63,193 nucleotides of DNA from contig DASWMP010000008.1 in assembly GCA_036399695.1 (NCBI GenBank), positions 1-63,193 of the forward strand, read 5' to 3'. Both the position numbers and the translations under genes were made by a program. The notes beneath the pieces were generated by a model, which was not told the DNA's origin, ran no database searches, and saw only the letters and a program-made list of their open reading frames with translations. This document shows positions 81 through 63,154 of this stretch, piece after piece. Source of the stretch: Thermoanaerobaculia bacterium. Lineage in GTDB: Bacteria > Acidobacteriota > Thermoanaerobaculia > Gp7-AA8. Position 1 is the stretch's first letter. Every line of letters starts with the position of its first letter.

Positions 81-3000
81 CTACACCAGCAGCTTCAGCG
101 CTCGAACCGCTTCGGTGGTGTCGAGCGTGTCGTCGCCGATGGCGTTGATGATGTCTTCGATGGACTTCATGTTCGGGTCGAGGGCGAATTCGGTCTCGAG
201 GCGCTGCTCGAGGGCCGACTCGGTGATCCAGTAGCGGTCGCGGGCGAATGGGTAGGTGGGCAGTGGAATGCGTCGCGGCTTGGCGCCGGCGTAGAGGCGC
301 GTCCAGTCGACCGGCTGGCCTTTGACCCACAGCTCGAGGAGCTTCGGGTTGTCGATGACTTCCTGGAGTCCGCCACCGCGGCGGTCTTGACCCGGCTCCA
401 CGCGTCCGCGATACAGACCGTCGATCTCTGTCGCACCGGCATCAAAAGCCGCCAGCTTCCCGGCCAGCTCCTCGGCCGTGCCGACGATGAAGCCGGCGCG
501 TTCTTCCATCGCGTCCCGCCCGATCTGCAGCGTCCAGGCGACGGCTGCGAGATCGACCGGCTGTTCGGCGCCGAGCAGGAGCTCGCGGAGATCGCGTGCG
601 CGCTGGCGCAACTGCTCGGCCGTCCGTGCCGACAGCGGAATGATGAATGAAGCATCGCCCCCGGTCGTCGCGGCTCGCGCCGCCGGGCGATGCTCCTCGA
701 TGACGAGATGCGCGTTGGTGCCGCTGAAGCCGAAGGAGCTGACGGCCGCGCGACGCAGCGAATCGGGCGCGACGTCCCACGGCTTCGTCTCCCGGCTGAT
801 GTAGAAGGGGGAGTTGCCAAAGTCGAAGCGTGAGTTTTCCGACTTTACGTTGAGCGTCGGCACCAGCGTCCGGTGACGCATCGACAGCAGCACCTTCTGC
901 AGGCCGGCAACGCCGGCGGCGGCGGTGGTGTGGCCGATGTTGCTCTTCACCGAGCCGATGGCGCAGAAGTTCTTCCTGGCCGTCTTCTCTTTGAACACCG
1001 TGGCCAGCGCTTCGAGCTCGATCGGGTCGCCGAGCCTCGTGCCGGTGCCGTGGGCCTCGACGTACGTGATGGTGTCGGGATCGATCTCGTGCTTCGCGTA
1101 GAGCTCCCGTTCGAGCTCGATCTGGCTGCTGATGCTGGGCGCGGTGATACCGTTGGTCTTGCCGTCCTGATTGATGCCGGACGCGAGGATGACGCCGTAG
1201 ATGTGGTCCCCGTCGGCCTCCGCGTCTTTGAGGCGCTTGAGCACGAGCGCACCGACGCCTTCGCCGTTCACGATGCCATCCGCCCCGTCGTCGAACGTCT
1301 TGCACTGGCCGGTGGCCGAGAACATCCCCGCCGCGCTCATGGAGACGTACGCCTCCGGGCTGAGCCAGAGACTGACGCCGCCAACAAGGGCCATGTCGAT
1401 CTCACCGCGGGCGAAAGCCTGGCTGGCCAGATGAATGGCCACGAGCGAGGCCGAGCAGGCCGTGTCGACGGAGAGCGCCGGCCCCTTCAGGTTGAGGTAG
1501 TAGGCGATGCGCGCGGCGGCAATGGCGAAGCTGTTACTCGTGACCGGCGCCGAGAGCACGCCATGCTGCAGCAGGAGCGACGTGTAGTCGTTGGTGGAGA
1601 TGCCGAGATAGACACCACACCGTTTGTTGCTGAGCGTCGTGCTGCAGTAGCCGGCGTCTTCGAACGCGCGATAGCTCTCCTGCAGGAACAGCCGGTGCTG
1701 CGGGTCCATGTACTCCGCTTCCTGCGGAGAGATCCGGAAGAAGCGGGCATCGAAGCAATCGACGTCGTCGATCGCCCCCATCCACTTCGAGTACGTCTTC
1801 TCGGCGCGGGTGCGATCCGCGTCGTAGTACCGCTGCATGTCCCAACGGCTTTCCGGCACCTCGGTGATGGCGTTCTTCCCCGCGGCGAGGTTCTCCCAAT
1901 ACTGCTTCAACCCCTCGGCCTTCGGGTAGCGGCCGGACATGCCGACGATGGCGATCCTGTCGTCCGCTGCTGCAGGCGCTGACGAAGACTTGCGAATGCG
2001 CAACCTCTTCGCCGTGCGCGGCTGCGCACTCACGAGCGGCTGAGCGCTGACCACCGGCGCGGCGGCCTCCATGCGCTCAGATACCGCCGGTTCAGGAGCG
2101 GGCGCCGGCATCTTCGCGAGCTCCTGCTCGAGGAACAGCGAGAGCTCGCGAATGGTCGGGTAGTCGTACAGGCGGATGTGCGACAGCTCGGTGCCATACT
2201 TTTTGTTGATGGAGACGACCAGCTCCGCGCCGAGGAACGAGTCGAGGCCGAGATCGACGAGAGGCTGGTCGGCGTCGATTACGGAGGGCTCGATGCGCAG
2301 CACGGTGCCGAGCAGCACTTTCAGTTGCTGCTGCAGCTCCGCGAGAGTGACGGCTGGTGTTGCCGCCGCCGCGCGTTGCGCGGGAGCGGCGGGTGCCGTG
2401 GATGCGGCGGGGGCGAAGATGCGCGCGTTGCGCAGGAAAGCGGCGATCTTCGCCTTCGAACCTTCGGCGATGAGCGTCTGGTCGTGAGGCAGGGCGAGGC
2501 TGCGATAGAACGTCTGCAGGCCGGTGGTGGTCCGCATCGGTTCGATGCCGGTGGTCTGGCGCACCAGCTCCTGGCTCGCGATGTCGAGCTTCATTCCGCC
2601 CGCCTGCCACAACGGCCAGTCGATCGAGCGGGTGCGTCCGTAGCGCTCGCCGGCCGTCACCTGACGATTGCGATACGCGGCGAACTGGTCGAGGAAACCG
2701 TTGGCAGTGGCGTAGTCGGCCTGCCCGGGGTTGCCGAGTGCGCCGGCGATGGAGGAGAAGAGAACGAAGAAGTCGAGCTTCAGGTGGCGTATAGCCGCGT
2801 CGAGGTTGAGTGCGCCCGCGACTTTCGGCGCGAGGACGGCACGAAACTCGGCGCCCGTCTTCTTCACGATCATGTTGTCGGCGAGCATCCCGGCAACGTG
2901 CAGGATGCCGTCGAGGCGGCCGTGCTCCGCGACGAGGAAGGCGATGAGCTGCTGGACTTTGTGATCGTCGCTGAGCTCGACCTGGCGGTAGCTGACCTGC

Positions 3001-6000
3001 CCGGCGTTGGAGGACCAGCCGTCGATGACGGCCTGCTTTTCCGCGCTCCATGCTGAGCGGCCGGTCAACACGATTCGCGCGTTGCGCGTCTGTTCGAGGA
3101 TCTCTTTCGCGAAGAGCGTCCCCAGGGCGCCGAAGCCACCGGTGATCAGGTAGACGCCGCCGTCTTTGAAGGCGACCGGCGGCTGGGCGGCGTCGGCGGC
3201 GAGCTCCTGCCAGCGCAGCACTTCGCGGGTGTCGTTTCCATAGCGGATCACCGGCTCGATCGTCCGCGACTTCTCCCCGTCCAGCCGCCCCGCCAATTCC
3301 GCGGTCGTGGTCTGCGGCGGGACGATCATGAGCTGTCCGGTGAACTGCGGGCTTTCCAGTGCGGCCGTCTTCAACAGCGCGGAGAGGCCAGCGAAGAGTG
3401 CCCCGTCGTGCTCCCCCGACACGACGACGTGCATCAGCACGCGCCCTGCGGGCTTGCGGCTCAGGATGGCCTGCACGTACTCGAAGATTGCGACGGCGTG
3501 GTCGGTGCAACGGGCGGCGACGCTCTGGTGCTCCGCGGCGAGCAGTGACAGGCAATGGCTGTCCGGCAGCAGCGTCTGCAACGTCTCGCTGTCGACGTTC
3601 GGCAGCTCGCAGGAGACGACGTGGTGCTCCCGGTATTCCATGCCGCTCGTCGTGGAGATGGCGACGTCACCCGTCACCCACGCCGGCGCGGCGAACACGC
3701 TCTCAACTTGCGGTGCCGTCGTAGCGGCGGTACCGCGGGCGCGGTGCGCCACGGCCGAAGCCAGCCCCTTCCGCCGCAGCGACGGGTGCAGTCGTGCCGT
3801 GGTCGTGCCGCGAGGGCCACCCTGCTTCGCGGCGGGCGCCTCGATCCAGTAGCGCTCCTTCGCAAACGGGTAGACCGGGAGGCTGATGCGTCGCGGCTTC
3901 GGCTCGTCGTACAGCCGGTTCCACTGGAGCTCGAGCCCTTTCACCCAGAGCTCGAGGAGCTTCGGCAGCTTCTGCTGCGCGAGCAGCCGGTCGACGAGCG
4001 TCTCCTTCATCTCCTCGTCGAGACCGAGCGCGCTCAGGCTGTCGCGGTTGCGCTTCACCTGTCCCTGGTAAACGTCGTCGATGCGCTGCTCGCCATCGGC
4101 GAATGCCTGCAGCTTTGCAGTGAGCTCCTCGATCGTGCTCACGACGAAGCCGGCGCGCTCGTCCATCGGCGACCGGCCGGCCTGCAGCGTGTAGGCGATG
4201 TCGCGCAGCTCGCGTGAGGGCTCTGAGCGGATGAAAGCGATGAGATCGAGCGCCTTCTGCTTCAGTTGTTCGGTGGTCCTGGCGGACAGCGGCACGATGG
4301 TCGTGGCATTCGGCGGGACAGCCGGGAGCGGATGCGCTTCGACGGCCGGCCGGTACTCACCGATGACCATGTGCACGTTCGTCCCGCTGAAGCCGAAGGA
4401 GCTGATGGCCGCCTGACGTTTTCCGTTATCGGCTGCTTTCCACTCCTGCAGGCGCTCGTTGACGAAGAAGGGGCTGTTCGTCAGGTCGATGTGCTCATTG
4501 AGCCGCTCGAAGTTGATGGTCGGCGGCAACTGGCGGTGCTTCAGCGCGAGGATGAGCTTCATGACGCCGGCGATTCCGGCGGCCGTGAGACAGTGGCCGA
4601 TGTTGCTCTTGATCGACCCGAGGGCGCAGTAGGCGTTCTTCTGGGTGTATTTGCCGAAAGCGTTTTTCAGTCCTTCCACCTCGATCGGGTCGCCGAGCTT
4701 CGTGCCGGTGCCGTGCGCCTCGATGAGCTGGATGGCGTTCGGGTCGATGCCGAAGTGGTCGTACACCTCCTGCTCGAGCCGCGTCTGCGCTTCCGCGTTC
4801 GGCGCCGTGATGCCGTTGCTGCGGCCATCCTGGTTGACGCCCCATCCTTCGATGACGCCGTAGATGATGTCGCCGTCGCGCTCGGCGTCGGCCAGGCGCT
4901 TCAGCATCACCACGCCCACACCTTCACCCGGCACGAACCCGTCGGCGCGCTGGTCGAACGTGAAGCACTTGCCTTCGGGCGACAGCATGCCGGCCTGCGC
5001 CGTCTTGATGTGCATCTCCGGCCCGGCCATCACACAGACGCCGCCGGCCAGGGCGAGATCGCTGCCCCCTGAGCTCAACGTGTCGCAGGCCTGGGCGATG
5101 GCCACGAGCGACGACGAGCAGGCCGTATCGATCGCCACGCTGGCGCCCTGCAGGTTCAGGAAGTAGGAGATGCGCGCCGCGAGGATCGACATCGCGCCGC
5201 CGGTGAAGCCCTGCGCGCTCAGTTGGTGCTGGCGGGACAACTGGTGGTAGTCCGTGGCGGCGCAGCCAACGAAGACGCCGCACCGGCTGCCCGACAGCAC
5301 GCGGCTGTCGTACCCGGCGTTCTCGATGGTGTGCCAGCACGCCTGCAGAAAGAGCCTCTGCTGCGGATCCATGCTCTCCGCTTCGGTCGGCGAGATGTTG
5401 AAGAAGAGCGGGTCGAACAGATCGACACCATCGAGCGCCCCGAGCCATTGGCTGTTCGTCTTCCCCGGCACGGCGTCGCCCGGTTGATAGAAGGCGTTCA
5501 GGTCCCACCGGTTCGCCGGGACGGGGGCGATACAGTTCCGGCCGTCGGCGATGTTCTGCCAGAACTCGTCGAGGTTCTTCGCCTGCGGGAACTGCCCGGC
5601 CATGCCGATGACGGCGATTGGCTGCGCGGCCGCGGGTGCGGGCGCGGCGACCGGCTCCACGCGTGTGGCCGCGCGGCGGCGGCGACGCGTCGTGGCGGCG
5701 GCGGCAGGCCGCGGCTTCGCAATCGCGAGTTGCGGGGACGTGCGGCTCACCGGCCCGGCTGGCCTCTCCACGGCCGGGGCTTCGTCGATCGGAGCGGCGG
5801 CGACGCGTGAGAGCGTCCCGTGCTTCTCGGCTTCCTCCCGGACGTGGCGGCTGAGCTGAGTGAGCGTCGGGAAGCTGTAGACCTTCGTCGCTTCGATCGA
5901 GGTCTCGTATTTCTCGTTGATCTTGCGGATCCAGGTGACGCCGCTGATGGAGTCCAGGCCCAGGTCGACGAACTGGGCGTTCTCGTCGATGTCGCTCTCG

Positions 6001-9000
6001 CGCATCTGCAGCTCGTTCGCGAGCAGCGTCCTGAGGCCGGCCGTGACCGTGCGCAGGACGTCGCCGTCGCTGGTGCGAGGTGCGGCCGCGGGTTGCGGCG
6101 GTGCGGGGCGCGGCGGTGCGATGACGGGCGCAGGCTCGGCCTCTTCGTGGAAGTTGCTTTCGATCTGCGCGAGCGTGGCGGCCTGGCCGACGAACGTCTG
6201 TTCGTGCATGGCCACTTCGAGCCGGTACGTTTCCTCGATCGACTCACGGACGCCGGCCGTCAACTGCTGCTTGAGGGCCACGAGCCGTGGCCTGGAAGCG
6301 CGCGCGATCTGCCGGGCCAGGGTCATCGCCGCCGGCGACACGACCTCCGCGCGAGGGAGGATGGGCAACCGCAAACCACGCGCTTTCAGGTCGCTGCCGG
6401 TGTAGTAACGGGCGGTGAACAGGCTCTCTCTGGCCAGGTCCGCCCCCATCTTCGCGGCGAGGATCGCGGTGGCTCCGGCGCCGGGGGTGAAGCCGTAATC
6501 CATGTAGGGGCTGACGTAGCGGCTCTCGTCGCTCAGCAGCACCACGTCGGCGAACATGCCCAGCGTCCAGCCGGCGCCGATGCCGTGTCCCTGCATCGCC
6601 GCGATGACCGGCACCTTGCAGACGAACGGCAACTGGAAGATCTTGAGGTCGGTGAACTTGGCCTTCCCCTGCTGGATGGCCAGGAGGCCGTCTTTGGTGC
6701 CGCCGGACGCAAAGTAGCTGTCGTAGCCGGTGAGGACGACCACCTTGCAGGCGGGCGTGCTCTCGATGCGGGCGAAGACTTCGTTGAGCCCGTCGATGAA
6801 GGCGTCGGAGAACATGTTCTTCGCCTGACGGTCCTCCATCTTCACCACGATGATGCCCTCTTCGTCGACCGTGGCGGTGACGACGTTCGAGCGCAGCACA
6901 ATCGGGCCGGCCGAGGGTGCGGGCTGCTCGGCGGGTTGCTCGACGGGAGCGGGCGTGCTCGCGTCATGTGTCGCGTGACTGACAGGATTGTCCGTCCTCC
7001 ACTCCTGGCCGACGATGGTGGCGGCGGTGTGCTGTTTCCACGCGGCCAGCGTCGTCCGCGGCCATTGCGTCCAGCGCTCGGCAATGGCGATCGCGGCCGG
7101 CAGCACCTGGGGGCGCTCGACGGCTGTCACCGTGCCGGTGCGTTGCGCGAGGACGGCACCGGAGTAGCTCGAGGCGATCAGCAGCAGCTCGCTCGCGGCC
7201 TGGTTCCCGAAGCGGCGGGCGAAGAGCGGCACCGCTGCCGGCAGTGCGTTCGCCGACGAGTAGGAGCCGGTGCGGCTGTAGACGGCCGCCTCGCAGAATT
7301 GAGCCACCAACCAGCCGTTGCCGCTCGCGTTGTCGCTGAGTGCGGCCACGATCGGAACCGGTGAGTCGGCGAGCAGCCGCTGAACGTCGGCCAGCACATC
7401 GCCGGAGACCGGCGGCAGAAATTCAGGATGGCGGCTGGACAGCACGATCGCTTTGCAGGACGCGTCCTGATTCACTTCGGCGAAGACGCCCCTGAGATCG
7501 GCGAGCAGCTCGCGGGCGCTGGCATCGGCGGCCAGCTTCAGGACGAGCACACCGTTGGCCGGCGGGACGAGCTCGACGAAGGTGGTCGCGGTGAGCGCTG
7601 CGATTTCGGATTTCGGATTTGCGATGTCCGGGTTGGTCTGCGGCGCGATGGGCGCAAGGGCGTTGACGTACACCGCGAGCCGTCGCGTCAGGTGCTCCTT
7701 GAGCAGACGGAGCGCATCCCGCGACTTCGACACCAGCGACGCGGCCAGTTGCTCCCCATGCGACTTCACTTCCGCTCCAGCGACGATCGGGAACGTCCAG
7801 CCTTTGGCCCGCAGTTGCTTCGCCGTGGAGGGGCCGGCGACGTACAGCAGGTCGTGTGCATGCGGCTCGCCGAAGCGCTCGGCGAACAGCAGCGCCTCCG
7901 CCGTCGTGGGCAGGAGGCCACTGTCCACATGGGTGAACCCGCACGCCGCCTCCTCGCTGCACACCATGAAGTCGCAGAGCGCCGCGGCCATGAAGGCGGC
8001 GCCGGCGGCATCGCCTTCGAGGACCGCGATGATGGGATACGCGAACGACGCGAGGGCGCGATACAGCCCCTGCTCGATGGCGGAGTTGTAGTCGTCCCTG
8101 CTGCCGGACGTGAAGGCGCGGTCGAGACCTTCGAGCGTCAGGACCTTCAGCGCCGGCTCCGGCTGCACGCGCGCCAGCGCCTGCAGCAGTTGGGGAACGG
8201 CGTCGCTGGATGCGTTGACGCGGATGGTGAATCTGCCGTTGCCCTCGTCGAACAGCCGCACCGAATCGGCGTCCGGTCCGCCCTTGCGGATCGGGAGCGA
8301 CGGCGTCGACAGGGCGATTGGTGCGCGCGCTGCGACGCGCTGCGCACCGACGGCGCCGGGTGCTGCCAGCAAAATCGCGGCGCGCTTCTTCCGCTCCGCC
8401 GGGATGACGGGTTGCTGCTGCGTGGCCAGCACGATCTCCTTGCGTGTCAGAGGCATAACGACCGCGGCCGCGGCCTTGGCTGCAGTCACGACCGGTGCCG
8501 CAACCTCGAACCGGGCCGCCTGCATCGTGACGCCGCGCAGTTGCACCGCGACGTTACCTTGCGGATCGCAGACGTCGATGTCCACGGCGGCGTCGCTCGT
8601 GGAGCGCACCCAGGCCACCATCTCGCTGCTGCACGGCGCCAGGATGCGCAACGTCTCCAGCGCAACCACGGCCGGGCCGCCGAACAGCCGCCCCGCCGCC
8701 TGCAGCGCACCCTCGATCACCGCCGGGTGCAGGACGTAGTCGCTGGTGGTAGCGGCGATGTTCTGCGGGAGTGCGAGCTTCGCCAGAAGCTGGCCGTCAC
8801 CGCCGCCGCCGAGCTGCGCCAGATCGAGCCTCGAGGGCGGCGCTTCGTAGCTCAGCACTCCACGGCCGTGGCAATGCACGGTGTCGCCGCTGTAAATCTC
8901 GTAGTCGATCTCGTCCCGATCGTTCGCAACCAGGGCGATGCTGACAGGCTGGTTCCCGGTCACGACGACCGGCTCCGACCAGACGTGCTCCCGCAGTTCC

Positions 9001-12000
9001 AGCATCGCCGACGCACACCACGCCGGGAACGCGTCAGCGATCGCCGCCCGCGCCATCTCCAGATACGCGGCGGAGGCAAGCCGTCTCGCACCGTGAGATC
9101 CCTCGAGGAAGAGCTCCTCCCCCGTGAAGGTCGAGCTGTAGCGCTGCTCGTTCAGATCGGACGTGTTGCTGTGCACCAGCGGATGCACGAACCCGCTCGC
9201 AACCTGTGTGGCCGCCACCTCACGAACAGCAGGCAGCTCCAGCCAGCAGCGTTCCTTCGCGAACGGATACACCGGCAGGCTCACGCGCGACGGCCTGGTC
9301 TCGCCGTAAAGCTTCGTCCAGTCCAGCTCCAGCCCTTTGACCCAGAGGTCGAGCAGCTTGCTGAACTTCCGATTGGCGATCCACTTGTCGACGGTCTGCT
9401 GCAGATCGGTGTCGGTACTGAAGGCGGACAGCGACTCGTTTTTCCGTTTCGCCTGCCCCTGATAAGCGCCGTCGATCCCCTGCTCGCCGGCCACATACGC
9501 GCGCAGCTTCTCGACCAGCTCTTCGGGCGAGCTCACGACGAAGCCGAGACGCTCGTCCATCGCTTCGCGGCCGGCCTGGAGCGTGTACGCCGTGGCCACG
9601 AGGTCGAGAGTGCTCAGGCGCGGGCGGACGAAGTCCAGCAGGTCCTGCGCTTTCTGTAGCAGTTGCTCGGGCGTCCTCGCCGAGAGCAGGATGGCCACGT
9701 TGCCACCCGCGGCCGGCTGGGCGGCCGGCGCCGCATACTCCTCGATGAGCAGGTGGGCGTTCGAGCCGCCGGCGCCGAACGACGAGAGGCCGGCGATGCG
9801 CGGCAACTGACGGCCGTCGATGACCGGCGGCTCCCACGACCTCAGCTCCTGATTGACGACGAAGGGGGTGCTCTCGAACTCGATGTGCGGGTTCAACTGC
9901 GCCGAGTGGAGCGACGGCACGAGCTGCCGGTGCTGCATCTGCAGCAGGATCTTGGTGAGGCCCGCGATGCCCGCGGCCGATTCGCAGTGGCCGATGTTCG
10001 ACTTGGCAGAGCCGATGAGGCAGAAGCCGGTGTCCTTCGTGTAGTGCTGGAAGGCGCGGGTGAGCGCGGCGATCTCGATCGGGTCGCCGAGCTTCGTCCC
10101 GGTGCCGTGCGCTTCGATGTAGCTGACGTGCCGGGCGTCGGTCTTCGATTCCGCCAGGGCCCGGCCGATGGCGCTGGCCTGCGCCTGCGGGTTCGGGACG
10201 GTGTAGCCGTTCGTCTTGCCGCCGTGATTGAGGGCGCTGCCGCGGATCACGCCGTAGATGTGGTCGCCGTCGCGCTTCGCGTCGGACAGCCGCTTGAGCA
10301 CGACCACGCCGACGCCCTCGCCCGGGATGTAGCCGTCGCCCCCTTCGCCGAAGCTCTGGCAGTGGCCGTCGCTGGAGATGAACTGCCCCGCGCTCAGCAC
10401 GAGGTACTTGTTCGGATGGATGCTGACGTTGACGCCGCCCGCGAGCGCGAGGCTGGTGCGCCCGAGCTTCAGGTCCTGACAGGCTACGTGGATCGCCGTC
10501 AGCGACGAGGAGCACATGGTGTCGAGCGTCATGCTCGGGCCGTGCAGGTTCAGCGCGTACGACACGCGGTTGGCGATGCTCGCCGCGCTTCCGGCCACTC
10601 CGATCCTCGTCCCGAGCGCGCTGGCCTCGGCTCCGAACAACTGATACTCGCTGTACATCACGCCGGCGTACACGCCGACCTGACCGGCGAGGTCGTCGTT
10701 CTGCGGCACCTGAAGGGTGGCACGGGTGTAACCGGCGTCTTCGATGGCCATCCAGGCGTGCTGCAGGAAGAGCCGCTCCTGCGGATCGATCTGCTTCGCT
10801 TCCTTCGGCGAGATGTTGAAGAAGAGCGCGTCGAACTCGTCGACACCGGCGATGAAGCCGCCCCACTTACTGTAGTGATGGCCCCCTTCCGTGCGGTCCT
10901 CACTAAAGTAGGCGCGCCAGTCCCAGCGCGACTTCGGGACTTCGGTGATGCAGTCCCTGCCGTCGCGGAGGTTGTTCCAGTAGGCCGCGAGATCGACGGC
11001 CTCCGGATAGCGGCCGCTCAGGCCGATGATGGCGATGGGCTCATCGTGAGAGGCGGCGGCTTGCGCCGGGCGCCTGACGGCGGAGCGGCCGTGCCGGCGG
11101 GGCAGCCGCTCGATGGGACCGATAGGACCGATGGGACCAATGGGACTAATGGGACTGATGGGGCTCTGCTCTTTGGCGGCAGGTGCTGCCACCAGCGCCG
11201 AGAGGCGCGCGGCGTGGGCCTGCGCAAAGTAGCGCGTCAGCTCGGCCATCGTGCGGTACTCGAAGAACAGCGTCTTCGGAAGTGAGCCGAACGTCTGTTC
11301 CAACTGGGTCGTGAGCTTGAGCGCGAGGATCGAGTCGATGCCGTACTTTTCCCACGGGGCCTCGGGGTCGATGCGATGGGCCGGTACCTTCAGCAGCCCG
11401 GCCAGTTCCTTGCGCAGGTACTCCTGCGTCTTCTCCGCGAGGCCATCGGCTGAGACAGCGACGGCCGATGCCGGCGTTGCGGCTTCGACCGGACGCTCGG
11501 CGCTCCCGAAGAGGAACGCACGCAGCCGCGCCGTATCTCCTTCGGCGACGAGCACCTGGTCGTGCGCCAGCGCCAGGCTGTGATGGAACGCCTGCAGTCC
11601 GGTGGCGGACTGCATCGGCTGTACGCCCATCGTGCGCTCCAGCACTTCCTGCGTGGCCGCGTCGATGCGCATCCCGCCGGCCTGCCAGAGCGGCCAGTTG
11701 ATCGAGCGCGTGCGGCCGTGGCGTTCGCCCGCCGCCACCTGCCGGTTGCGATGGGCGGCGAAGTGATCGAGGAAGGCGTTCGCTGCCGCGTAGTCGGCCT
11801 GCCCGACGTTGCCGATGGCACCGGCGAACGAGGAGAAGAGGACGAAGAAGTCGAGCTGAAGGTGGCGGCTGGCGTGGTCGAGATGGCAGGTACCGGTGAC
11901 TTTCGGGCCGAGGACTTCGGCGAATTCGCCGGCGGACTTTCTGAGGATGAAGTTGTCGGCGACGCGGCCGGCGCAGTGCAGGATGCCGTCGAGGCTCCCG

Positions 12001-15000
12001 TGCTCGCCGATGATCATGTCGACGAGCTGCTCGACCTGACGGAGCTCGCCCAGATCCACGCGGCGGTAGCTCGCGCGCCTCTTGTTCGCGCCGAGCGCAT
12101 CGAGGAGCGCCTGCTTCTGCGGTGTGAGCGGGGAGCGCCCGGTCAGCACGACGCGCGAGCCGGCGGTGCGCTCGAGGATCTCTTTGGCGAAGACGAGGCC
12201 CAGCGCGCCGAGGCCGCCGGTGATGAGATAGACGCCCCGATCTTTGAACGCTGCCGCGGCTGCCGGTGAGGACGGAATCTCTTCCCAGCGCAGCACCTGC
12301 CGCCGTCCGCCGTCGTAGCGCACCACCGCGTCGGTGGCCGTCGTCTTCTCCGCTTCCAGCCAGCGCGCCAGATCCTCGGTAGACGTCTGCATGGGAGCGA
12401 GGAGGAGCTGACCGGTGAGGTTCGGATTCTCCAGGGCCGCCGTCTTCAGCAAACCGGAGAGGCCGGCGAAGACCGCCTGCTCCCCGTCGGCCGGTACGAC
12501 GATCTGCACGAGGACGCGGCCCTGCGGCTTCGCCTCCAGGATCGTGCGGATCTGCTCGAAGGAGCCGAGCGCGTACGCGGAGTAGCGCTCCGCCAGCCCA
12601 TCCGCGCCGCGCGCGTGCAGCGCGACGCACTCGGTGGTTAGCAGCAGGGCGGAAAGATCATCAATGTCCACGGCCGCCAGCTCACAAAGCGCCACTTGGT
12701 GAGCGGTGAACGGGGAACCCATAGGACCTGTGGGCTCAAGGGCTATCCCATGTGTCCCATTGGTCTCATCTGTCCCATCGTGCCTCGCATCCCTCCACGC
12801 CGGTACCGCCAGTATGGCGCCCGCCGCACTCGTAACCACCGCGCCGGCGCTCAGCTTGCGCGACGAGAGTCCCCGCATCTGCACGCAGACGTTCCCGCTC
12901 GCGTCGCACAGATCGAGATCGAACTTCACGACGTGATCGGCGGCGTGACTGCCGGCCGCGTAGCGGACCCACGCCACCATCTCGGTGGTGCAAGGCGCGA
13001 CGATCCGCAGCGTCTCCAGCGCGAACGGCAGGCGCGGCTCCCCTGCATCGCCGGCCAGCAGCCCGACGCACGACTGCATCCCGCTGTCCATGAGCGACGG
13101 ATGCAGGACGTACTCGCTCGCAATCTGTCCGGCAATCTCCGGCAGCCGTAGTTGCGCCAGCAATTGCCCGCTGCCGCGATGAATGTCCGTGACTCCGCGG
13201 AACGACGGTCCGTACAGGAGCCCCATCTGTCGCCAGGCCGCGTACAACCCGCCGGGCTCGAGGTGCGACGCCCCCATCTCCCGCCGGAGCTGCTCGATGT
13301 CGAGTCTCGCGGTTGCCGGTTCGCGGCTCAGGACCGCGCGGCCCTGGCAGTGCACGACCTCCGCGTCCCCCTCTCCGCTGTAGACCTCGAAGACGATCCG
13401 GTCCTGCTCGTCGGTCGCCAGAGCGATGCTGACCTGCCGCGCACCGTCGACGACGATCGGCTGCACCCAGACCACGTCCTGCAGCTCCAGCACGACACCG
13501 TCGGCACGCTTCGGCAGGGCCTGCTCGATGGCCGCCCGCGCCATCTCCAGGTAGGCCACGCCCGGCAGCACCTTACGCGCCGCCTCGCCGCTCGCCTGCA
13601 CCTGGTGATCGGCGAGGAAGAACTCGTCACCGGTGAACGTCGACCCATAGCGCTGCTCGCTGAGATCGGAGATGTTGCTGTGCAGCAGCGGGTGGATGAC
13701 GGCCGTGGCCTTACCGGCCGCCAGCGTGCGCTGCGCGGTGGGCTCGATCCAGTAACGCTCCTTCGCGAACGGATAGAGCGGCAGGAGGATCCGCCGCGGC
13801 CTGGCCTCGCCGTAGAACGCGTTCCAATCGAGCTCGATCCCGTTGACCCAGAGCTCCAGCAGCTTCGCCAGCTTCTTCTCGGCGCGCCATTTCTCGATGA
13901 CCGACTGCTGCAGGTCGGTGTCCTGGCTGATGATGCCGAGCGTCGCCTTCGTCCGCTTGCCTTCTCCGCGGAAGGCATCGGCGATCGGCTGTACGCCGTC
14001 GGCGTAAGCCTGCAGCTTCTCCGCGAGCTCGTCGATCGAGCTGACGACGAAGCCGAGACGCTCCTCCATCGGTTCCCGTCCAGCCTGGAGCGTGTACGCG
14101 AGCTCCGCGAGATCGAGCGACGCGGTCTCGCGGCGAACGAACGCCAACAGATCCAGCACCTTCTGCTTCAGTTGCTCGGCCGTGCGTGCCGACAACGGCA
14201 CGATCGTCTTCGCACCCGGCACCGCCGTCGCGGTCCGCCGCGCCACACCCGGTGGCGGCACGTACTCGCCGATGACGAGATGCACGTTCGTGCCGCTGAA
14301 GCCGAACGAGCTGATGGCCGACCGCCGCTTCTGTCCCGGCGCGGGCGTCCAGTCCTGCAGGCGGCCGTTGACGTAGAAGGGGCTGCCCGTCAGGTCGATG
14401 TGCTCGTTGACGCGCTCGAAGTTGACCGTCGGCGGAAGCTGTTTGTGCCGCAGCGCGAGGATCAGCTTCTGCACGCCGGCGATGCCGGCCGCGGTGAGGC
14501 AGTGACCAATGTTGCTCTTCACCGAGCCGAGGGCGCAGTACTGCTGCTCCTGGGTGTACTTGGCGAAGGCGTTCTTCAGCCCTTCCACTTCGATCGGGTC
14601 GCCCAGCTTCGTGCCGGTGCCGTGCGCCTCGATGAGCTGGATGCCGGCCGGATCGATGCCGTAGCGGTCGTAGACGTCCTGCTGGAGGCGCGTCTGCGAC
14701 TCAGGATTCGGCGCCGTGATGCCGTTGGTCTTGCCATCCTGATTGATGCCCCACCCTTCGATGACGGCGTGGATGATGTCGCCGTCGCGCTGGGCGTCGG
14801 CCAGCCGCTTGAGCAGCACGACGCCGACGCCTTCGCCCATGACGAAGCCGTTGGCGCGCTGATCGAACGTGTAGCACTGGCCGTCCGCCGAGAGCATCCC
14901 CGCCTGCGCCGTCTTGATGTGCATCTCCGGCCCGGCCATGACGTACACGCCGCCGGCCAGGGCGAGATCGCTGGCGCCCGAAAGCAGGCTGTCGCAGGCG

Positions 15001-22469: not shown

Positions 22470-22709
22470 ACCCGTGTGCGTTCGGTTCGCAGCTTCGTTG
22501 GAGGGGAATCGGAGGAGTGGCGCCGGCTCATGCCGGCTCGTGGTCTGGGGGGCTCAGGTCCCCGGGCTTGCGCCCGGGGCTACGACGCTGACGCCCGCCA
22601 GGGGCGGACTGCGCGGTTCACGTCCGCCTCAGGCCGGGAAGAAGTGATCGCAACTCGGAAAAAGCGACTTCAAGTCGGATTCAGGTAACTTCGGGTCGGA
22701 AAGTGATGG

Positions 22710-38658: not shown

Positions 38659-38663
38659 TGTTG

Positions 38664-38670
38664 CCTCCTT
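38664..38670 (-). promoter_or_regulatory. Shine-Dalgarno sequence AAGGAGG for the START-like gene
   Basis: The minus strand reads AAGGAGG-CAACA-GTG. Confidence 0.65.
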
Positions 38671-38728
38671 GCAATCAGACGATTCGAAATCGTGTCCGCG
38701 GCAGCGAGTACGCCGCGCGGACGGTCAA

Positions 38729-40138: not shown

Positions 40139-40147
40139 TGGACCGCC

Positions 40148-41473
40148 TCAGAACCGGACCGTCTTCCAGCGTCCGCTGGCCCAGATCATTGTGATGAGAA
40201 TCGTCGAGATCAGACCGTAGACGACCTGCACGAGAGAGATCTGCACAAGGCCGTAATGCAGATGAGGGCCAACGACCCAGACGGCCGGAAGGAACAGCAG
40301 CCATTGCGTGATGAACGAGACCAGCATCACGCGATTGCCGTCGCCGAGGCTGTAGAGGGTGTAGGCGAAGATCCAGATCAGGCTGCCGAAGCCGGCGGTG
40401 CCGCCGAGCAACTGAAACGGAACGACGGCGATTTCGATCGTCCGCGGATCATGCAGGAAGATCGAAAGGACTTGCCGGGGAAAGAAGATGAGCGGAAGGC
40501 CGAGGATGACGTTGATGATCACGCCCAGCTTCCCGGCGTCCCAGCCCCACTGAGCGGCACCCTCTACGTTGCCTTCGCCGACGGTCCTGGACACCAGTGT
40601 TGCAGACGCCTGACCGAGCGACGCGGCCACGATCAACAGGAGCATCGACATTCTGACCTGGACGTTCATCACCGCCAGTTCGGCCGTGCCGAGGCGGCCG
40701 ATCATCCAGAAGAAGACGATGTAGCCGAAGGAGAAGAAGAACTCCTGAACGTTTGCCGGCATCCCGAGCTTCATGATGCGGCCGAGCAGCGACAGGGCCG
40801 GCTTCACCGACAGGAAGCCTTGTCCCCGGAAACGGAGCGCGACGACCACCAGATTGATGATCAGACCGACGCAGAGGGCCGTCACCGTACCGACTGCCGC
40901 GCCCTGAGCGCCCATCTTCGGCGCGCCGAAATGGCCGAAGATCAGCGCGTAGTTCACCGAGATGTTCGTCACGTTCATCACGAGGATGATGAGCATGTAG
41001 ATCTTCGTCCGCTCGACGCCGGCCCAGAAGCCCTTGAACGCCATCAGCATCCCGACGACCGGCACTGCCAGATATCGCGTTCTGAGATACGGCACGCCGA
41101 TGACCGAGACTTCCGGATCGGAAGAGATCAGCGAGAAGAAGAACGGTGTGAACCGGTAGCAGAGAATCGCCAGGGGTAACCCGACACCGAGTCCGAGCAG
41201 CAGCCCGCCGTTGAGTGTCAGGCAGAGCGGCTCCTTCGAGCCTTCGCCCCGCCGGCGCGCGACGATGCCCTGCACCGCCGCCGCGATCCCGCCGACCAGC
41301 GCCAGGACCAGCGTGTTGCTGAACGCCGCCAACCCGACCGCGGCGATGGACTGATGCCCCAGCGTCCCGACCATCGCAATGTCGATGAGATCCATCATCA
41401 AGTTCGCGCTGATCGCAATGCTGAGCGGAAACGCCAGCTTGGATATCGTTTTGATTCTGTCTCTGGTGAGCAT
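40148..41473 (-). CDS. MATE-family multidrug/metabolite efflux transporter, 441 aa
   Basis: About 12 hydrophobic segments. The N-terminal pattern (KLAFPLSIAISANLMMDLIDIAMVGTLG) and the duplicated half-repeat (MKLGMPANVQEFFFSFGYIVFFWMIGRLG) are typical of NorM/DinF-like MATE proteins. The ATG is preceded by GGATAAGGAA. Confidence 0.85.
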   Translation of the reverse strand: MLTRDRIKTISKLAFPLSIAISANLMMDLIDIAMVGTLGHQSIAAVGLAAFSNTLVLALVGGIAAAVQGIVARRRGEGSKEPLCLTLNGGLLLGLGVGLPLAILCYRFTPFFFSLISSDPEVSVIGVPYLRTRYLAVPVVGMLMAFKGFWAGVERTKIYMLIILVMNVTNISVNYALIFGHFGAPKMGAQGAAVGTVTALCVGLIINLVVVALRFRGQGFLSVKPALSLLGRIMKLGMPANVQEFFFSFGYIVFFWMIGRLGTAELAVMNVQVRMSMLLLIVAASLGQASATLVSRTVGEGNVEGAAQWGWDAGKLGVIINVILGLPLIFFPRQVLSIFLHDPRTIEIAVVPFQLLGGTAGFGSLIWIFAYTLYSLGDGNRVMLVSFITQWLLFLPAVWVVGPHLHYGLVQISLVQVVYGLISTILITMIWASGRWKTVRF

Positions 41474-41479
41474 GAAAGG

Positions 41480-41485
41480 TTCCTT
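41480..41485 (-). promoter_or_regulatory. Shine-Dalgarno-like AAGGAA for the MATE gene
   Basis: The minus strand reads GGATAAGGAA-CCTTTC-ATG. Confidence 0.5.
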
Positions 41486-41572
41486 ATCCCTCGAGAGTGG
41501 ATTTCATCTGATGGAGTGGAGCACTCCTGTTTTGATGTGAGGTGGGTGTGAGCCGCTGAGCCGGTGGGCTGC

Positions 41573-59302
<17,730 letters not shown>

Positions 59303-59306
59303 GTGA

Positions 59307-59314
59307 CCTTCCTC
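59307..59314 (-). promoter_or_regulatory. Shine-Dalgarno-like GAGGAAGG for the main NRPS (supports the ATG at 59302)
   Basis: The minus strand reads GAGGAAGG-TCAC-ATG-GAA-ACC. Confidence 0.55.
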
Positions 59315-59394
59315 GAGATGACGCATCCGCCGGCCGGTTCGCCGGGGATGCCGGGTGAGTTGCTGAATGGGGGGAGTACGCCGCGGGCGGGAGG

Positions 59395-59773
59395 CTAAGT
59401 TTTGCGTGCCGGAGACAAAGCTTTGAGTCCCGGGGTCAAAGCTTTGAGTCGCGGAGTCAAAGCTTTGAGTCGTGGAGTCAAAGCTTTGAGTCGCGGAGTC
59501 AAAGCTTTGAGTCGTGGAGGCAAAGTTTTGACTCCCGGAGGCAAAGTTTTGAGTGGCGGAGTCAAAGTTTTGAGTGGCGGAGTCAAAGCTTTGACTCCCG
59601 AGGCAAAAGTTTTTGAGTCCCGAGGCAAAGCTTTGAGTCGCGGAGTCAAAGCTTTGAGTCGTGGAGTCAAAGTTTTGCGCCCTGAGTCAAAGTTTTGAGT
59701 GGCGGAGACAAAGTTTTGAGTGCGGGAGGCAAAGCGTTGGGTGCGAGGGTCAAAGCTTTGAGTCAAAGCGTTG
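59395..59773. repeat. tandem array of about 18 units of 21 bp, consensus TCAAAGCTTTGAGTCGYGGAG
   Basis: Read directly from the sequence. The units are head-to-tail, and each carries the 12-bp palindrome TCAAAGCTTTGA (variant TCAAAGTTTTGA). The array abuts the stop codon of the upstream NRPS relic and ends 93 nt upstream of the ATG at 59302. Confidence 0.95.
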
Positions 59774-62700
59774 TCACAGCTTCACCTGCCCCAGGTATTC
59801 GATGTTGCCATCGTCCAGCCAGCGGCCGCGGTCACCGGTTTTGTACATGCGGGTGCCGGGGACGAAAGGATTCGGAACCCACTTTTCCTGCGTGAGGCGG
59901 GCGCGGTTCAGGTAGCCGCGCGGCAGACCGTCTCCCGACACGTGCAGCTCGCCGGCGACGCCGACCGGTTGCGGACGACTGCCGCGGTCGAGAATGTAGA
60001 TGCGTGTGTTGTCCACCGGCCGGCCGATGGGGATGACGGCGCGATCGAGCGTGGAGCAGTCGTACGACGTGGCGTCGATCGCCGCCTCGGCCGGACCGTA
60101 AACCTGATGCAGGACGGCCTTCGGGAATGTCGCCCGGCAGCGCTCGGCCGAGGCGCGGTCCAGGCCTGCGCCGGTGCAGAAGACCCGGCGGACGGTTTCG
60201 AACGTATCGCCGGTCTCGGCGAGGAACGTGCGCAGCAGCGAGGGGGTGAAATGCACGGCCGTTGCTTTCGAATCGGTGAGCACCCCCGCCAGCGGCGCCG
60301 AGGAAGCGATCGTGACGGACGCCCCGGCGGTGAGGGGCCAGAAGAGCTCCCCTACCGCGGTGTGGGAGGCGTGGGATGCGTGCTGTAGCAGGACGTCGTG
60401 GGCGTCGAGCGGATGACGGCGCTGCATCGAGCTGACCCGGTTCACCAGTGCCCGATGTTCGACGACGACGCCTTTCGGCTTCCCTTCCGCTGCCGCGGGA
60501 TAGACGACATAGCAGGCGCTCGCGGCTGAAGCGTCGTCGCGGAGCAACACACCCTGCGTTTTCAGCGCGGCGGCGCGGCGGACGATCTCCCCCCACTGGC
60601 GGTCGAGCACGACCAGCTTCGCGTTCGGTGCGAGCAGCGGGGCGAGCTTGTACCGGCAGGACTCCTGCGTCAGGACGACGGCGGCCTGACTGTCCTGGAG
60701 GACGTACGTGAGCTGCTCCTCGGCATCGGCCGGATCGAGCGGCAGATACGTCCCACCGGCTCTGACGACGCCGAGTGCGCCGATGGCCAGGTCGAAGGAG
60801 GGCTCGACGCAGACGGCCACGACGCTCTCCGCCGTCACGCCGAGCGCCTGCAGATACAACGCAAGCTCGCCGCTCTTGTCGGCGAGGGCCTGGTAGCTCA
60901 GTGGGTGTCCGGCGACGGTCACGACCGTCCTCGACGGAGCGGCGGCGGCCTGCGCGGAGAAGAGCTGGTGGATGGAGCGGTCGCGCGGATAGTCGGTGTC
61001 GGTGCTGTTGAAGCCGACGAGCAACTGCTGCTTCTCCACTTCGGTGACGCATTCGAGCGCCCGGATCTTCGTGGTGGGCCTGGCGGCGATGGCGCGGCAG
61101 AGCGAGGTGAAATGTACGCCGAGGCGGGCGATGGTTTGCGGCGTGTAGCGGGCGGCGTCGGTCAGGCGGAGGCAGAGCGCTGAACGCAGCGGGGCGGGCG
61201 CTTCCTGCGTCATCAGCAGCGCCGGGAAATCGCCTGCGGCCTCGGGCGCCGCGGCCTGGTGCGCGTAGGCCTCGTCGCAGGTCTTCTTCACCTGCGAGAG
61301 CAGCGCGGAGAAGGTGTCTTCAGGCTCGATGCGGCTGCGGAGCGGCAGAAGGCGTCCGCCGCCGGCGGTCACGACGCAGATGTCGCTTTCGCCGGTGTAG
61401 CGATGGAGCAGCACCTTGAACGCCGCCAGGAGGATCATGAAGAGGGACGCGCCTTTGTGCTGCGCCACCGCTTCAAGCTGGGCGGACACGTCGGCATCGA
61501 GGTCGAATGTGTAGCTGCCGGCGACAGGGTCGCTGCTCGTGCGCGGATGGTCGGCCGGCAGTTCGAGACGCTCCGGCAGGCCGCTGAGCTTCTGCTGCCA
61601 GTACGCGCGGCCTTGCTCGAAGAGCCGCGACGCGGCGAGCTGCTGCTGCTCCTGCTCCGTCAGCATCGGGAGCTCGTGCACCGCCAGATCAGGACTGGCA
61701 CCGAACCCCCGCAGCAGGACGGCATAGTGCCGGTACAGCGCTTCGATCGTCTCGCGCGAATAGAGGTCGGGGTTGTACTTGAGGTGGACGCTGAACGCAG
61801 ACCCCTGCGCCTCGTAGATTTCGAGGCCCAGCTCGAAGTCCCCTTCCTGCCAGATGCCCGGGACGTTCTCGAGCTGAAACAGCTCCTGCTGCAGCATCGA
61901 CATGAAGTCCGCGGGGTTGACGAAGTTCTGGTAGGCGTACGAGACGCGGAAGATCGGTGCGTTGTCACGCCGCGTCGACCTGAGCCCTTCGACGATCAGC
62001 GGGAAGGGGAAGCTGGAGTGGTAGAGCGCGTCCAGCATCGTTCCCTGCACTTTGCGCATGAACTGCTTGACCGTCAGCGGCGCGCCGCAGTGCACCCGCA
62101 GCGGCACCATGTTGATGAAGTAGCCGACCTCCGTCGCGAACTCCTGCGACGGCCGTCCCATGACCGGCATGCCGACGATGACGTCGTCCTGGTTCGAGTA
62201 GCGATGCAGCAGGAGCTGGAAAGCGGCGAGGAAGATCACGGACGGCGGCACCGCGTGCGCTTTGCTGAAATCGCGCGCCCATGCGCCGAGGTCTTGCGGC
62301 AGGTCAGTGACGAGCGTGTCGCCGGAGAAGGTTGTCTGCTGCGGGCGCTGCGTGCCCGGCAGGAGCTCGAACAGCGGCAATTCGCCGTCGAGCTGTTGTT
62401 GCCAGTAGCGCGCGTGCGCGGCGCCTTCGGACGATGCGAGCATCGCCTCTTCCCAGGCGACGAACTTCTGATAGCCGGGCAGCGGCTGCACCGGCCGCGG
62501 CGAAATGCCTTCGATCAGTTGCTGGTAACAGTCGAGGAGCGCCTTGAGCACGAGCACGGCCGAAGCGCCGTCGATGATGATGTGGTGCACGGTGAGCAGG
62601 AGGACCGGCTTCTCGTTCGCGCGGGCGAACAGCTCGATGCGCGTGAGCGGCCCGCGCTCGAGATCGAAGGGCTGCTTGGCGCGCGACTGCAGGAACGGCA

Positions 62701-63154
62701 GCAGTTGTGCGTCGCCGAGGGCAAGCGTCTGGTGCTGAAGTGACGTGCGGCAGGAAGCGTCGACGCGCTGGTAGAGGGCGCCGTCGCGCTCGATGACTCT
62801 CGCGGTGAGGATCGGGAGCTCGTCGAGCACGCGGTCCCACGCTTCCGCCAGCACGGCGGGATCGATGTCCGCGTTGATCCGGAAGCAGAGCGGCACGTTG
62901 TACGCGCTCATCCCGGGATTCATCTTCTGCAGGATGTACAGCCCCTTCTGCCCCGCGGAGAGCGGGAACTCGACGGGCGTGACGTCCTCCGCCTGCAGGA
63001 AGGCGATGAGCTCCGGCTTGAGACGGACGATGCCGTCGCGCAGCTCCTGCGTCAGCGCACCCTTCTGCGCGTAGCAGCTCAACTGACCGGCATGGGCAGA
63101 CAGCTTCACCCCATTGCTGGCCAGCTTGCGGAGAAGCTCGTTGACGGTTTCCAT
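59774..63154 (-). CDS. decayed, 3'-truncated NRPS module (dock-C-C remnant-degenerate A; no carrier domain); possible pseudogene
   Basis: The ORF is open to the window edge (GTG at 63187). The ATG at 63154 gives METVNELLRKLASNGVKLSA..., paralogous to the start of the downstream NRPS. It contains a docking domain (63154-62993) and a complete C domain with intact HHIIIDG (62567-62587). Next comes only the C-terminal half of a second C domain, with internal deletions (about 61627-60953). The A domain has ruined core motifs: YPAAAEGKPKG instead of YTSGSTGxPKG (60470-60502), HTAVGE instead of FDVSVWE, and GPAEA instead of GPTEA. The protein stops at ...EYLGQVKL, before motifs A8-A10, and has no T domain. 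Confidence 0.85.
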   Translation of the reverse strand: METVNELLRKLASNGVKLSAHAGQLSCYAQKGALTQELRDGIVRLKPELIAFLQAEDVTPVEFPLSAGQKGLYILQKMNPGMSAYNVPLCFRINADIDPAVLAEAWDRVLDELPILTARVIERDGALYQRVDASCRTSLQHQTLALGDAQLLPFLQSRAKQPFDLERGPLTRIELFARANEKPVLLLTVHHIIIDGASAVLVLKALLDCYQQLIEGISPRPVQPLPGYQKFVAWEEAMLASSEGAAHARYWQQQLDGELPLFELLPGTQRPQQTTFSGDTLVTDLPQDLGAWARDFSKAHAVPPSVIFLAAFQLLLHRYSNQDDVIVGMPVMGRPSQEFATEVGYFINMVPLRVHCGAPLTVKQFMRKVQGTMLDALYHSSFPFPLIVEGLRSTRRDNAPIFRVSYAYQNFVNPADFMSMLQQELFQLENVPGIWQEGDFELGLEIYEAQGSAFSVHLKYNPDLYSRETIEALYRHYAVLLRGFGASPDLAVHELPMLTEQEQQQLAASRLFEQGRAYWQQKLSGLPERLELPADHPRTSSDPVAGSYTFDLDADVSAQLEAVAQHKGASLFMILLAAFKVLLHRYTGESDICVVTAGGGRLLPLRSRIEPEDTFSALLSQVKKTCDEAYAHQAAAPEAAGDFPALLMTQEAPAPLRSALCLRLTDAARYTPQTIARLGVHFTSLCRAIAARPTTKIRALECVTEVEKQQLLVGFNSTDTDYPRDRSIHQLFSAQAAAAPSRTVVTVAGHPLSYQALADKSGELALYLQALGVTAESVVAVCVEPSFDLAIGALGVVRAGGTYLPLDPADAEEQLTYVLQDSQAAVVLTQESCRYKLAPLLAPNAKLVVLDRQWGEIVRRAAALKTQGVLLRDDASAASACYVVYPAAAEGKPKGVVVEHRALVNRVSSMQRRHPLDAHDVLLQHASHASHTAVGELFWPLTAGASVTIASSAPLAGVLTDSKATAVHFTPSLLRTFLAETGDTFETVRRVFCTGAGLDRASAERCRATFPKAVLHQVYGPAEAAIDATSYDCSTLDRAVIPIGRPVDNTRIYILDRGSRPQPVGVAGELHVSGDGLPRGYLNRARLTQEKWVPNPFVPGTRMYKTGDRGRWLDDGNIEYLGQVKL

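Follow-up and report, generated by a model that had tools for sequence, protein, structure and literature searches.

A putative orphan trans-AT PKS-NRPS hybrid cluster with non-colinear gene order in an uncultured soil acidobacterium

Contig DASWMP010000008.1 of a Thermoanaerobaculia bacterium carries genes for a nonribosomal peptide synthetase (NRPS) next to genes for polyketide synthases (PKSs). This entire contig (C8 of a 411-contig assembly, coded G000) was analyzed and is called the window here (63,193 nucleotides). The window probably represents the central 63 kb of one ~105-kb trans-acyltransferase (trans-AT) PKS/NRPS hybrid cluster, which was broken by the assembler at palindromic repeats. 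As judged from its sequence, the cluster is an orphan hybrid with a non-colinear gene order, and its host is an uncultured soil acidobacterium. The growing chain would pass from PKS1 over PKS2, PKS3 and PKS4 to the NRPS and its reductase, unlike the order of the genes. Two alternatives had been left by the original prediction: (a) two separate products, or (b) a non-colinear hybrid with reductive release. The second fits all evidence gathered, and we hold it with good confidence as an explanation of the whole.

Contig joins, synteny and gene content

The genes were delimited by ORF (open reading frame) translation, Pfam scans and a self-seeded domain map, and the domain string of the original prediction is correct by these. 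All long ORFs of the window lie on the minus strand, as had been claimed. The count of eight genes, however, has to be lowered to seven. The supposed eighth gene, a 123-aa ORF (59395-59766), was rejected as the mere translation of a 21-bp unit repeated 17.9 times. The same tandem array fills the gap between g1 and g2, which measures 447 nt and is the exception to the claimed gaps of 70-240 nt. The single operon suggested from these short gaps is at most a possibility. In the related genomes G061 and G124 the array is not present at this position.

The PKS had also been described as neither starting nor ending in the window. This is true of the window, but its cause is an assembly break: the line seems to lack a start and an end because the window is a whole contig with both ends in a repetitive extragenic palindromic (REP)-like element, and the missing parts are located on contigs C301, C222 and C305. 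One family of such palindromes breaks much of the G000 assembly, terminating about 130 contig ends. The arms carry a variable 4-nt centre that is complementary within one copy, and contig ends of a repeat-ridden genome can be paired by such copy-specific (rare-variant) hairpin centres.

The flanks were recovered by genome-wide Pfam searches, which located further PKS genes on C305 and C222, two acyltransferases (ATs) on C222 and the sole hydroxymethylglutaryl-CoA synthase (HMGS) on C305. The order of the cluster is C301(-), C222(-), window(-), C305(+). Between C301 and C222 the gene of an enoyl-CoA hydratase (ECH1) is split, with its last 48 residues on C222. The window and C305 are joined by the TTGC variant of the palindrome: the assembly has only two arms of this variant, one at the beginning of C8 and one at that of C305, and they are oriented as one hairpin.

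For synteny, g1 was searched against 127 genomes of the same order, and the contigs of relatives were fetched and annotated. In G061 the cluster lies on a single contig of 117.9 kb (C4). The gene order is ABC exporter, acyl carrier protein (ACP), ketosynthase (KS) with active-site Ser, ECH1, AT1, phosphoesterase, phosphopantetheinyl transferase (PPTase), AT2, PKS4, g1 and the reductase-ended NRPS, continued by MATE, GMC, g5, PKS1, PKS2, PKS3 and HMGS, with restriction-type genes after it. The order in G015, G124 and G121 agrees over the available parts. The NRPS genes lie within the PKS cluster in five related genomes.

No AT and no thioesterase (TE) were found in the window, as originally stated. 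Acyl_transf_1 matches in the genome are confined to C210 and the two genes on C222, leaving the KS modules of the window AT-less. AT2 scores 338.7 bits, above the FabD equivalog cut-off of 260.9. AT1 and AT2 adjoin PKS4 in G061, G015, G121 and G124 as well. With free-standing ATs in the cluster and AT-less KS modules, the system is a trans-AT PKS. Between AT1 and the PPTase lies a calcineurin-type metallophosphoesterase (C222, 16761-17543), which adjoins the PPTase also in G061, G015 and G121 and may be an ACP phosphodiesterase-like partner.

Working order and chemistry of the assembly line

The order of the PKS proteins can be read from their split modules. PKS1 was correctly described as opening about 15 aa before a KS and lacking loading domains; KS1 is preceded by just 15 residues, which leave no space for an N-terminal docking region. 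Equally, PKS2 ends in KS, linker and tail with its ACP elsewhere, and PKS3 starts with dehydratase (DH), ketoreductase (KR) and ACP. The junctions are KS-DH/KR-ACP (PKS1 to PKS2), KS/DH-KR-ACP (PKS2 to PKS3) and KS-DH/ACP (PKS3 to PKS4), so that PKS2, PKS3 and PKS4 each open with exactly the domains absent from the preceding protein. Splitting of modules between subunits in this manner is typical of trans-AT PKSs (PMC9113145). All 15 KS domains retain the Cys-His-His triad, and their mutual identities fit the proposed order: a DH-KR module precedes each of KS4, KS6, KS9 and KS10 (80-85% identical), in two cases across a protein boundary, and an ECH module precedes both KS5 and KS7 (80% identical). 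In PKS1, one DH-like domain (DH') lacks the catalytic Asp and may act as an isomerase or cyclase.

The start and the end of the line can be read from the relatives. The PKS that follows g5 in G121 opens with an AprA-type loading module, and the NRPS there is a single ORF (Dock-C-A-PCP...-TE). This places the PKS after g5 first and the NRPS last. In G104 a PKS gene ending in KS-DH, a PKS gene with ACP-DUF-SH and a Dock-C-A-PCP gene are adjacent and colinear. None of the four contigs (C301, C222, C8 and C305) carries a TE, which leaves the reductase of g2 as the only release domain.

Two other roles of PKS4 were rejected. A SxtA-style loading module (ACP-GNAT-like-PLP) is contradicted by the 'GNAT-like' part, which is a homologue of LnmJ-DUF, and by the KS-DH-ending PKS gene directly upstream in G104. 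A cyclic or iterative line, with the PKS4 ACP feeding KS1 of PKS1, is contradicted by the pairing of the PKS4 tail with TubC_N heads in six clusters, by the missing N-terminal docking region of PKS1 and by the true loading module at that position in G121.

Near its N terminus, PKS4 contains a domain of unknown function (DUF) that is directly followed by an SH domain. The DUF shares 40% identity with LnmJ-DUF over 218 columns (E = 2e-43; LnmJ query machine-read from a PDF figure, Supplementary Fig. 4 of PMC8479088). Within the DUF-SH family, a DUF identity range of 30-57% is stated (PMC8479088). The SH domain matches Beta_elim_lyase at 94 bits. In the PDB its top match is 9cen, a 'Polyketide Synthase Protein' (E = 1.5e-62), followed by tyrosine phenol-lyases; a literature search for the code 9CEN returned nothing relevant. 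In leinamycin-type lines the DUF-SH didomain installs an -SH or -SSH group (PMC8479088). By analogy, the didomain of PKS4 would insert sulfur. Its position is mid-line: three more KS modules come after it, and then the NRPS. The features of leinamycin proper, a DUF-SH in the final module before the TE and a thiazole-forming NRPS start, were not found, since the four contigs carry no TE and no heterocyclisation-type start was seen.

The beta-branching cassette had been reported as missing. This holds for the window but not for the cluster, in which the cassette is complete over C301, C305 and PKS2. The HMGS (C305:18314-19726) scores 237 bits against TIGR01835, under the cut-off. The donor KS on C301 has the active site GGASASG (Cys replaced by Ser) with both His kept, and the donor ACP lies beside it. 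ECH1 matches PksH at 320 bits, as scored with the G061 orthologue (74% identical to the G000 copy over the C301 part). Inside PKS2, two ECH'-ECH'-ECH2 units are present, and the third in-line ECH matches PksI (221 bits) and CurF ECH2 (188 bits). Acceptor ACPs of beta-branching are flagged by a Trp six residues after the Ser. The corresponding GLDSxxxxxW occurs only at PKS2 residues 2201 and 5504, in the ACPs after the ECH units.

The AlphaFold2 (AF2) model of the ECH'-ECH'-ECH2 unit is compact (pLDDT 87.6, pTM 0.89), and in Foldseek each third matches a crotonase monomer. This suggests a single-chain pseudo-trimer, with the packing read from the pTM of 0.89 only. At least 526 copies of the unit were found with an alignment query (a single ECH-unit protein query gave none), in Acidobacteriota, Bacteroidota, Gammaproteobacteria, Verrucomicrobia, Planctomycetota and others, including Aquimarina sp. 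Aq78. No description of triple ECH units was found in the literature searched.

The NRPS g2 has five modules of condensation (C), adenylation (A) and peptidyl carrier protein (PCP) domains and a C-terminal reductase of the short-chain dehydrogenase type. The claim that it ends in a chain-releasing reductase is borne out by NAD_binding_4 (227.8 bits) and by legible TGxxGxxG and YxxxK motifs (TGASGFLG, Rossmann; YAQSK). The specificity codes of modules 1 to 5 are DTKDLGVVDK, DLTKVGHVGK, DLYNNALTYK (twice) and DVWHFSLIDK. The first agrees at nine of ten positions with what we take to be the Glu code (DAKDLGVVDK) and the second equally with the presumed Asp code (DLTKVGHIGK). DLYNNALTYK agrees at nine of ten positions with DLFNNALTYK, presumably Ala, which is the least certain; DVWHFSLIDK we take to be Ser. 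The predicted peptide is Glu-Asp-Ala-Ala-Ser. Between PCP3 and C4, g2 also holds an extra half PCP (49190-49400, residues 3335-3379): a C-terminal half with the HS motif kept. The duplication is found in G124 as well.

Overall, the following route is proposed. The chain would start on KS1 of PKS1, pass through PKS2 and PKS3 by the split modules and enter PKS4 via KS-DH/ACP-DUF-SH. There, (thio)cysteine would be added and then cleaved, whereby the sulfur stays on the chain, as leinamycin-type homology suggests. After 15 KS steps the chain would reside on the last ACP of PKS4, with two HMGS-derived beta-branch steps, one C-methyl and two retained hydroxyls. Through its conserved C-terminal tail, PKS4 would recruit g1 and g2 by their beta-hairpin docking heads, and g1, with its intact C domain, would couple the polyketide to the first amino acid, which is carried by g2. 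The NRPS g2 would add the predicted pentapeptide, and its reductase would release an aldehyde or alcohol. The MATE and ABC pumps would export the product, and g4 and g5 may tailor or bind it.

The PKS-to-NRPS junction and competing explanations

The junction depends on g1, which had been called a relic. This is right for its A domain, which is dead: its A3 motif is YPAAAEGKPKG, His stands in place of Asp235, and the protein stops at the A8 hinge. All four g1 orthologues end at the same point, just after RWLDDGN..YLG. The C domain, on the contrary, is intact and is the best-conserved junction element, with HHxxxDG in five genomes, NHxxxDG in G121 and 56-68% identity across genera. The degenerate part is rather the first C domain of g2 (C1), with HQIVADG in this genome and HQLISDA in G124. 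This domain has been lost from the g2 of G061 and G015, which starts with Dock-A-PCP. In G121 the NRPS still includes the junction C domain.

Both g1 and g2 carry a TubC_N docking head (PF18563, 49.1 and 54.6 bits; cut-off 26). After the last ACP, the PKS4-type protein ends in a tail with the consensus ...LEQVLWQ(D/E)....(S)Y(E/D)K.TF before the stop codon. Each of the six clusters compared has this tail, invariably ahead of a TubC_N head. Read most simply, the junction C domain would be provided in trans by g1, and the tail would bring both g1 and g2 to PKS4. It is documented that one short linear motif (SLiM) can be shared by several beta-hairpin-headed partners, as in docking of the enacyloxin/TubC type (PMC9113145).

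The separate status of g1 also suits a convergent hybrid, in which the NRPS would release the pentapeptide alone while g1 transfers the PKS4 chain to this free peptide or to some other amine or alcohol in solution. Indeed, g1 stands alone as a protein, combines a beta-hairpin head with an intact C domain and lacks a carrier domain, the release C domain Bamb_5915 of enacyloxin offers a precedent (PMC9113145), and a dead or absent C1 of g2 fits a self-initiating NRPS. However, G121 and G104 carry their orthologous C domain as a cis fusion with A-PCP, the canonical elongating arrangement. Moreover, the docking head of g2 is kept even where C1 is deleted, suggesting that g2 is brought to the same PKS terminus. 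We regard the convergent route as highly unlikely.

The least probable explanation is that of two interleaved pathways, i.e. alternative (a): a free Glu-Asp-Ala-Ala-Ser aldehyde or alcohol, started at A1-PCP1 with C1 silent, and a separate beta-branched polyene with another release. The missing catalytic His in C1 would fit such an initiation module, a promoter of its own may lie in the array between g1 and g2, and 16 of the 127 genomes have the NRPS-MATE-GMC-g5 set as a recurring unit. Yet this set adjoins a DUF-SH PKS in every relative inspected, with the NRPS inside the PKS cluster in the five genomes mentioned. No TE or other PKS release domain is present on the four contigs or in the whole G061 cluster. 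The N-terminal heads on both g1 and g2 point to a partner upstream of them, which the matching PKS4 tail supplies, and the junction C domain of G121 and G104 is fused to the NRPS directly after the PKS. It is also highly unlikely that the cluster is decaying in this genome and the product no longer made. Signs of decay could be seen in the dead A domain of g1, the dead C1 of g2, a hairpin insert in the C domain of module 2, the g1-g2 array, the REP elements between PKS genes and the lack of a loading module. Seven frames, however, are open over the 63 kb of the window (including ORFs of 7462 and 5917 aa), as are PKS3 and PKS4, and the KS triads are intact throughout. The truncation point of g1 and the KS-first start are common to four genomes in four genera, so that both appear to be old and retained.

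The preferred explanation, one hybrid line with reductive release, has points against it as well. For KS1, neither a loading module nor a starter enzyme could be found. Module 12, before the DUF-SH, has a DH but no KR, which gives no ready account of the enoyl substrate for sulfur addition. The comparison of the DUF depends on the machine-read LnmJ sequence, and the amino-acid assignments depend on the presumed reference codes, Ala being the weakest. The join of C222 and the window rests on synteny and matching REP halves only, as the end of C222 is a poly-C homopolymer artefact. For the junction, g1 has no recognisable means of binding g2, and its action in trans is inferred from motif states; the change of His to Gln does not prove C1 of g2 to be inactive. 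Finally, the g1-g2 array and the hairpin in C2 could impair expression or function in this genome.

A more far-reaching and distinctly tentative reading is that the hand-over was divided by duplication and complementary decay, combined with a sulfur-bearing product and mid-chain DUF-SH chemistry. In this case, the 'docking head + C' part of g1, with its dead A-core, would condense in trans, while the acceptor NRPS would have its own first C domain dead (two genomes) or deleted (two genomes). The last PKS, a dimer, would recruit both proteins with its one conserved tail.

Accessory features, comparison with known systems and meaning

The features of the cluster are collected in Table 1.

Table 1. 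Features of the window and of the flanking contigs (window coordinates unless a contig is named)
Feature	Position	Strand	Remarks
REP-like hairpin, loop and one arm	1..56	.	C305 begins (first 28 nt) with the complementary arm, which shares the rare TTGC centre
g7/PKS2	81..22469	-	KR-ACP-KS4-halfDH-ECH'-ECH'-ECH2-ACP(W)-KS5-DH-KR-ACP-KS6-halfDH-ECH'-ECH'-ECH2-ACP(W)-KS7-KR-ACP-KS8-linker-tail; tail 84-698
Second triple crotonase-fold unit	6138..8234	-	followed by beta-branch-flagged ACP at about 5835-6032
First triple crotonase-fold unit	16095..18113	-	only third domain PksI/CurF-ECH2-like; followed by beta-branch-flagged ACP 15750-15947
g6/PKS1	22710..37835	-	KS1-DH-KR-ACP-DH'-ACP-ACP-KS2-DH-KR-MT-ACP-ACP-KS3-DH (MT, methyltransferase)
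g5, membrane-anchored protein	37912..38658	-	probable START/SRPBCC lipid-binding fold (tentative)
g4, divergent FAD-dependent GMC-type oxidoreductase	38729..40075	-	all matches under family cut-offs
g3, MATE efflux transporter	40148..41473	-	Pfam MatE; TIGR00797 219.6 bits, over cut-off
g2, NRPS	41573..59326	-	five modules and reductase; Pfam, domain map
g2 terminal reductase	41927-42691	-	
g2 module 5	42803-45943	-	Ser (predicted)
g2 module 4	46010-49123	-	Ala (predicted)
g2 module 3	49190-52501	-	Ala (predicted); extra half PCP
g2 module 2	52568-55813	-	Asp (predicted)
Hairpin repeat, 69-nt arms, in frame	55408..55550	.	within C domain of NRPS module 2
g2 module 1	55880-59014	-	C (altered, HQxxxDG)-A-PCP; Glu (predicted)
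g2 docking head	59132-59302	-	
Tandem array, 17.9 copies of palindromic 21-bp unit GGAGTCAAAGCTTTGAGTCCC	59390..59764	.	fills g1-g2 gap
g1	59774..63154	-	TubC_N head, C, C fragment, A-core; no A-sub domain, no PCP
g1 dead A-core remnant	59777-60961	-	Pfam AMP-binding
g1 C-domain fragment	61022-61636	-	
g1 intact C domain	61637-62968	-	HHIIIDG
g1 beta-hairpin docking head	62984-63154	-	Pfam TubC_N
REP-like palindromic element, half	63158..63193	.	contig end, just upstream of g1 start
Genes of C301		-	ABC exporter, small donor ACP, KS (Cys to Ser), most of PksH-like ECH1
Genes of C222		-	AT1, metallophosphoesterase, PPTase, AT2 (FabD-like), PKS4
Genes of the window		-	g1, NRPS g2, MATE, GMC oxidoreductase, START-like g5, PKS1, PKS2
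Genes of C305		+	PKS3, HMGS, DUF4386 membrane protein
PKS3 (C305)			DH-KR-ACP-(KS-DH-KR-ACP)x2-KS-KR-ACP-KS-DH
PKS4 (C222)			ACP-DUF-SH-KS-DH-KR-ACP-KS-DH-KR-ACP-KS-ACP-tail

Of the accessory proteins, g5 has no Pfam or NCBIfam family and gives only a weak hint of Polyketide_cyc2. The top 44 PDB matches of its AF2 model are START domains; the assignment is tentative because the model is of low confidence (pLDDT 58). Homologues of g5 occur in the same 16 of 127 genomes, travelling with the NRPS-MATE-GMC set, and where inspected g5 always lies directly before the first PKS gene.

Several repeats lie inside the window. The 21-bp array has reading frames open on both strands and may be regulatory for the NRPS gene; a second 21-bp array in the genome is located on contig C140 (40623-40896). 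The hairpin in module 2 adds about 40 residues, which are absent from the paralogous C3 and from the G124 and G061 orthologues. In addition, in-frame 9-bp tandem repeats of 2.8-5.8 copies encode (PIG)n, (PMG)n or (NGT)n (11111-11162, 20705-20738, 25695-25732, 32118-32150 and 34978-35002). Those placeable in the translations fall in inter-domain PKS stretches, mostly from an ACP to the next KS.

The closest known systems are the DUF-SH PKSs, i.e. LnmJ, GnmT (guangnanmycin), WsmR (weishanmycin) and the 'non-LNM type' families (PMC8479088). These share the trans-AT character, the HMGS cassette and, within a PKS protein, the DUF followed by a PLP (pyridoxal phosphate) lyase of the tyrosine phenol-lyase type. 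There, however, the didomain belongs to the last module before the TE, whereas here it sits mid-line in a split KS-DH/ACP-DUF-SH-KS arrangement. The thiazole-forming NRPS start and the macrolactam logic are missing, and the PKS precedes the NRPS instead of following it. The host is an acidobacterium, a group absent from the representative list of PMC8479088.

For the junction, the comparison is enacyloxin (Bamb_5917/Bamb_5915) and TubC-type docking, where a C-terminal short motif on the carrier protein likewise recruits a headed C domain (PMC9113145). Here the docking is predicted from sequence, g1 has an extra dead A-core, and a second headed partner, g2, holds the acceptor PCP. The HMGS branching of bacillaene (AcpK, PksF, PksG, PksH, PksI) and curacin (CurF ECH2) shares all five functions and the Trp-flagged acceptor ACPs. 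In this cluster, however, the cassette is placed at both cluster ends, and the in-line ECH2 is preceded by two degenerate crotonase-fold domains.

Two further likenesses concern the ends of the line. We take myxalamid-type lines (MxaA) to share the transfer of a polyunsaturated polyketide to an NRPS and the reductive release as amino aldehyde or alcohol. Myxalamid, however, is cis-AT and colinear with one amino acid, in contrast to the trans-AT line here with five amino acids and NRPS genes upstream of the first PKS gene. Mupirocin MmpD is presumably another first PKS protein that opens with a KS and has no recognisable loading module. Its architecture is otherwise unrelated, and the relative G121 does have an AprA-type loading module. 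This sister cluster (G121:C2) combines the AprA-type (pivaloyl/t-butyl-forming) module with a TE-terminated NRPS of other amino-acid codes, and the family is thus diversifying at both ends of the line.

No characterised acidobacterial trans-AT product was found in the literature searched, nor was a characterised polyketide from uncultured soil Acidobacteriota in the searchable literature. The cluster family is so far confined to the latter. With the joins described here, an unresolved fragment becomes a testable map of ~105 kb with a defined working order, and a contiguous orthologue that could be cloned is available on the 117.9-kb contig of a Thermoanaerobaculia metagenome-assembled genome. 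The mid-line sulfur-insertion didomain, the junction C domain seemingly acting in trans and the widespread triple crotonase unit are of interest for engineering. If the more far-reaching reading is true, the line would make a new beta-branched polyketide of ~C32 that bears sulfur (as thiol or hydropersulfide) and an acidic pentapeptide aldehyde cap, and it would be the first case of mid-chain DUF-SH chemistry. If the hand-over was indeed divided as tentatively proposed, the four genera, with the unsplit G121 form as starting state, would be a natural series of an assembly-line junction that is dismantled without loss of function.

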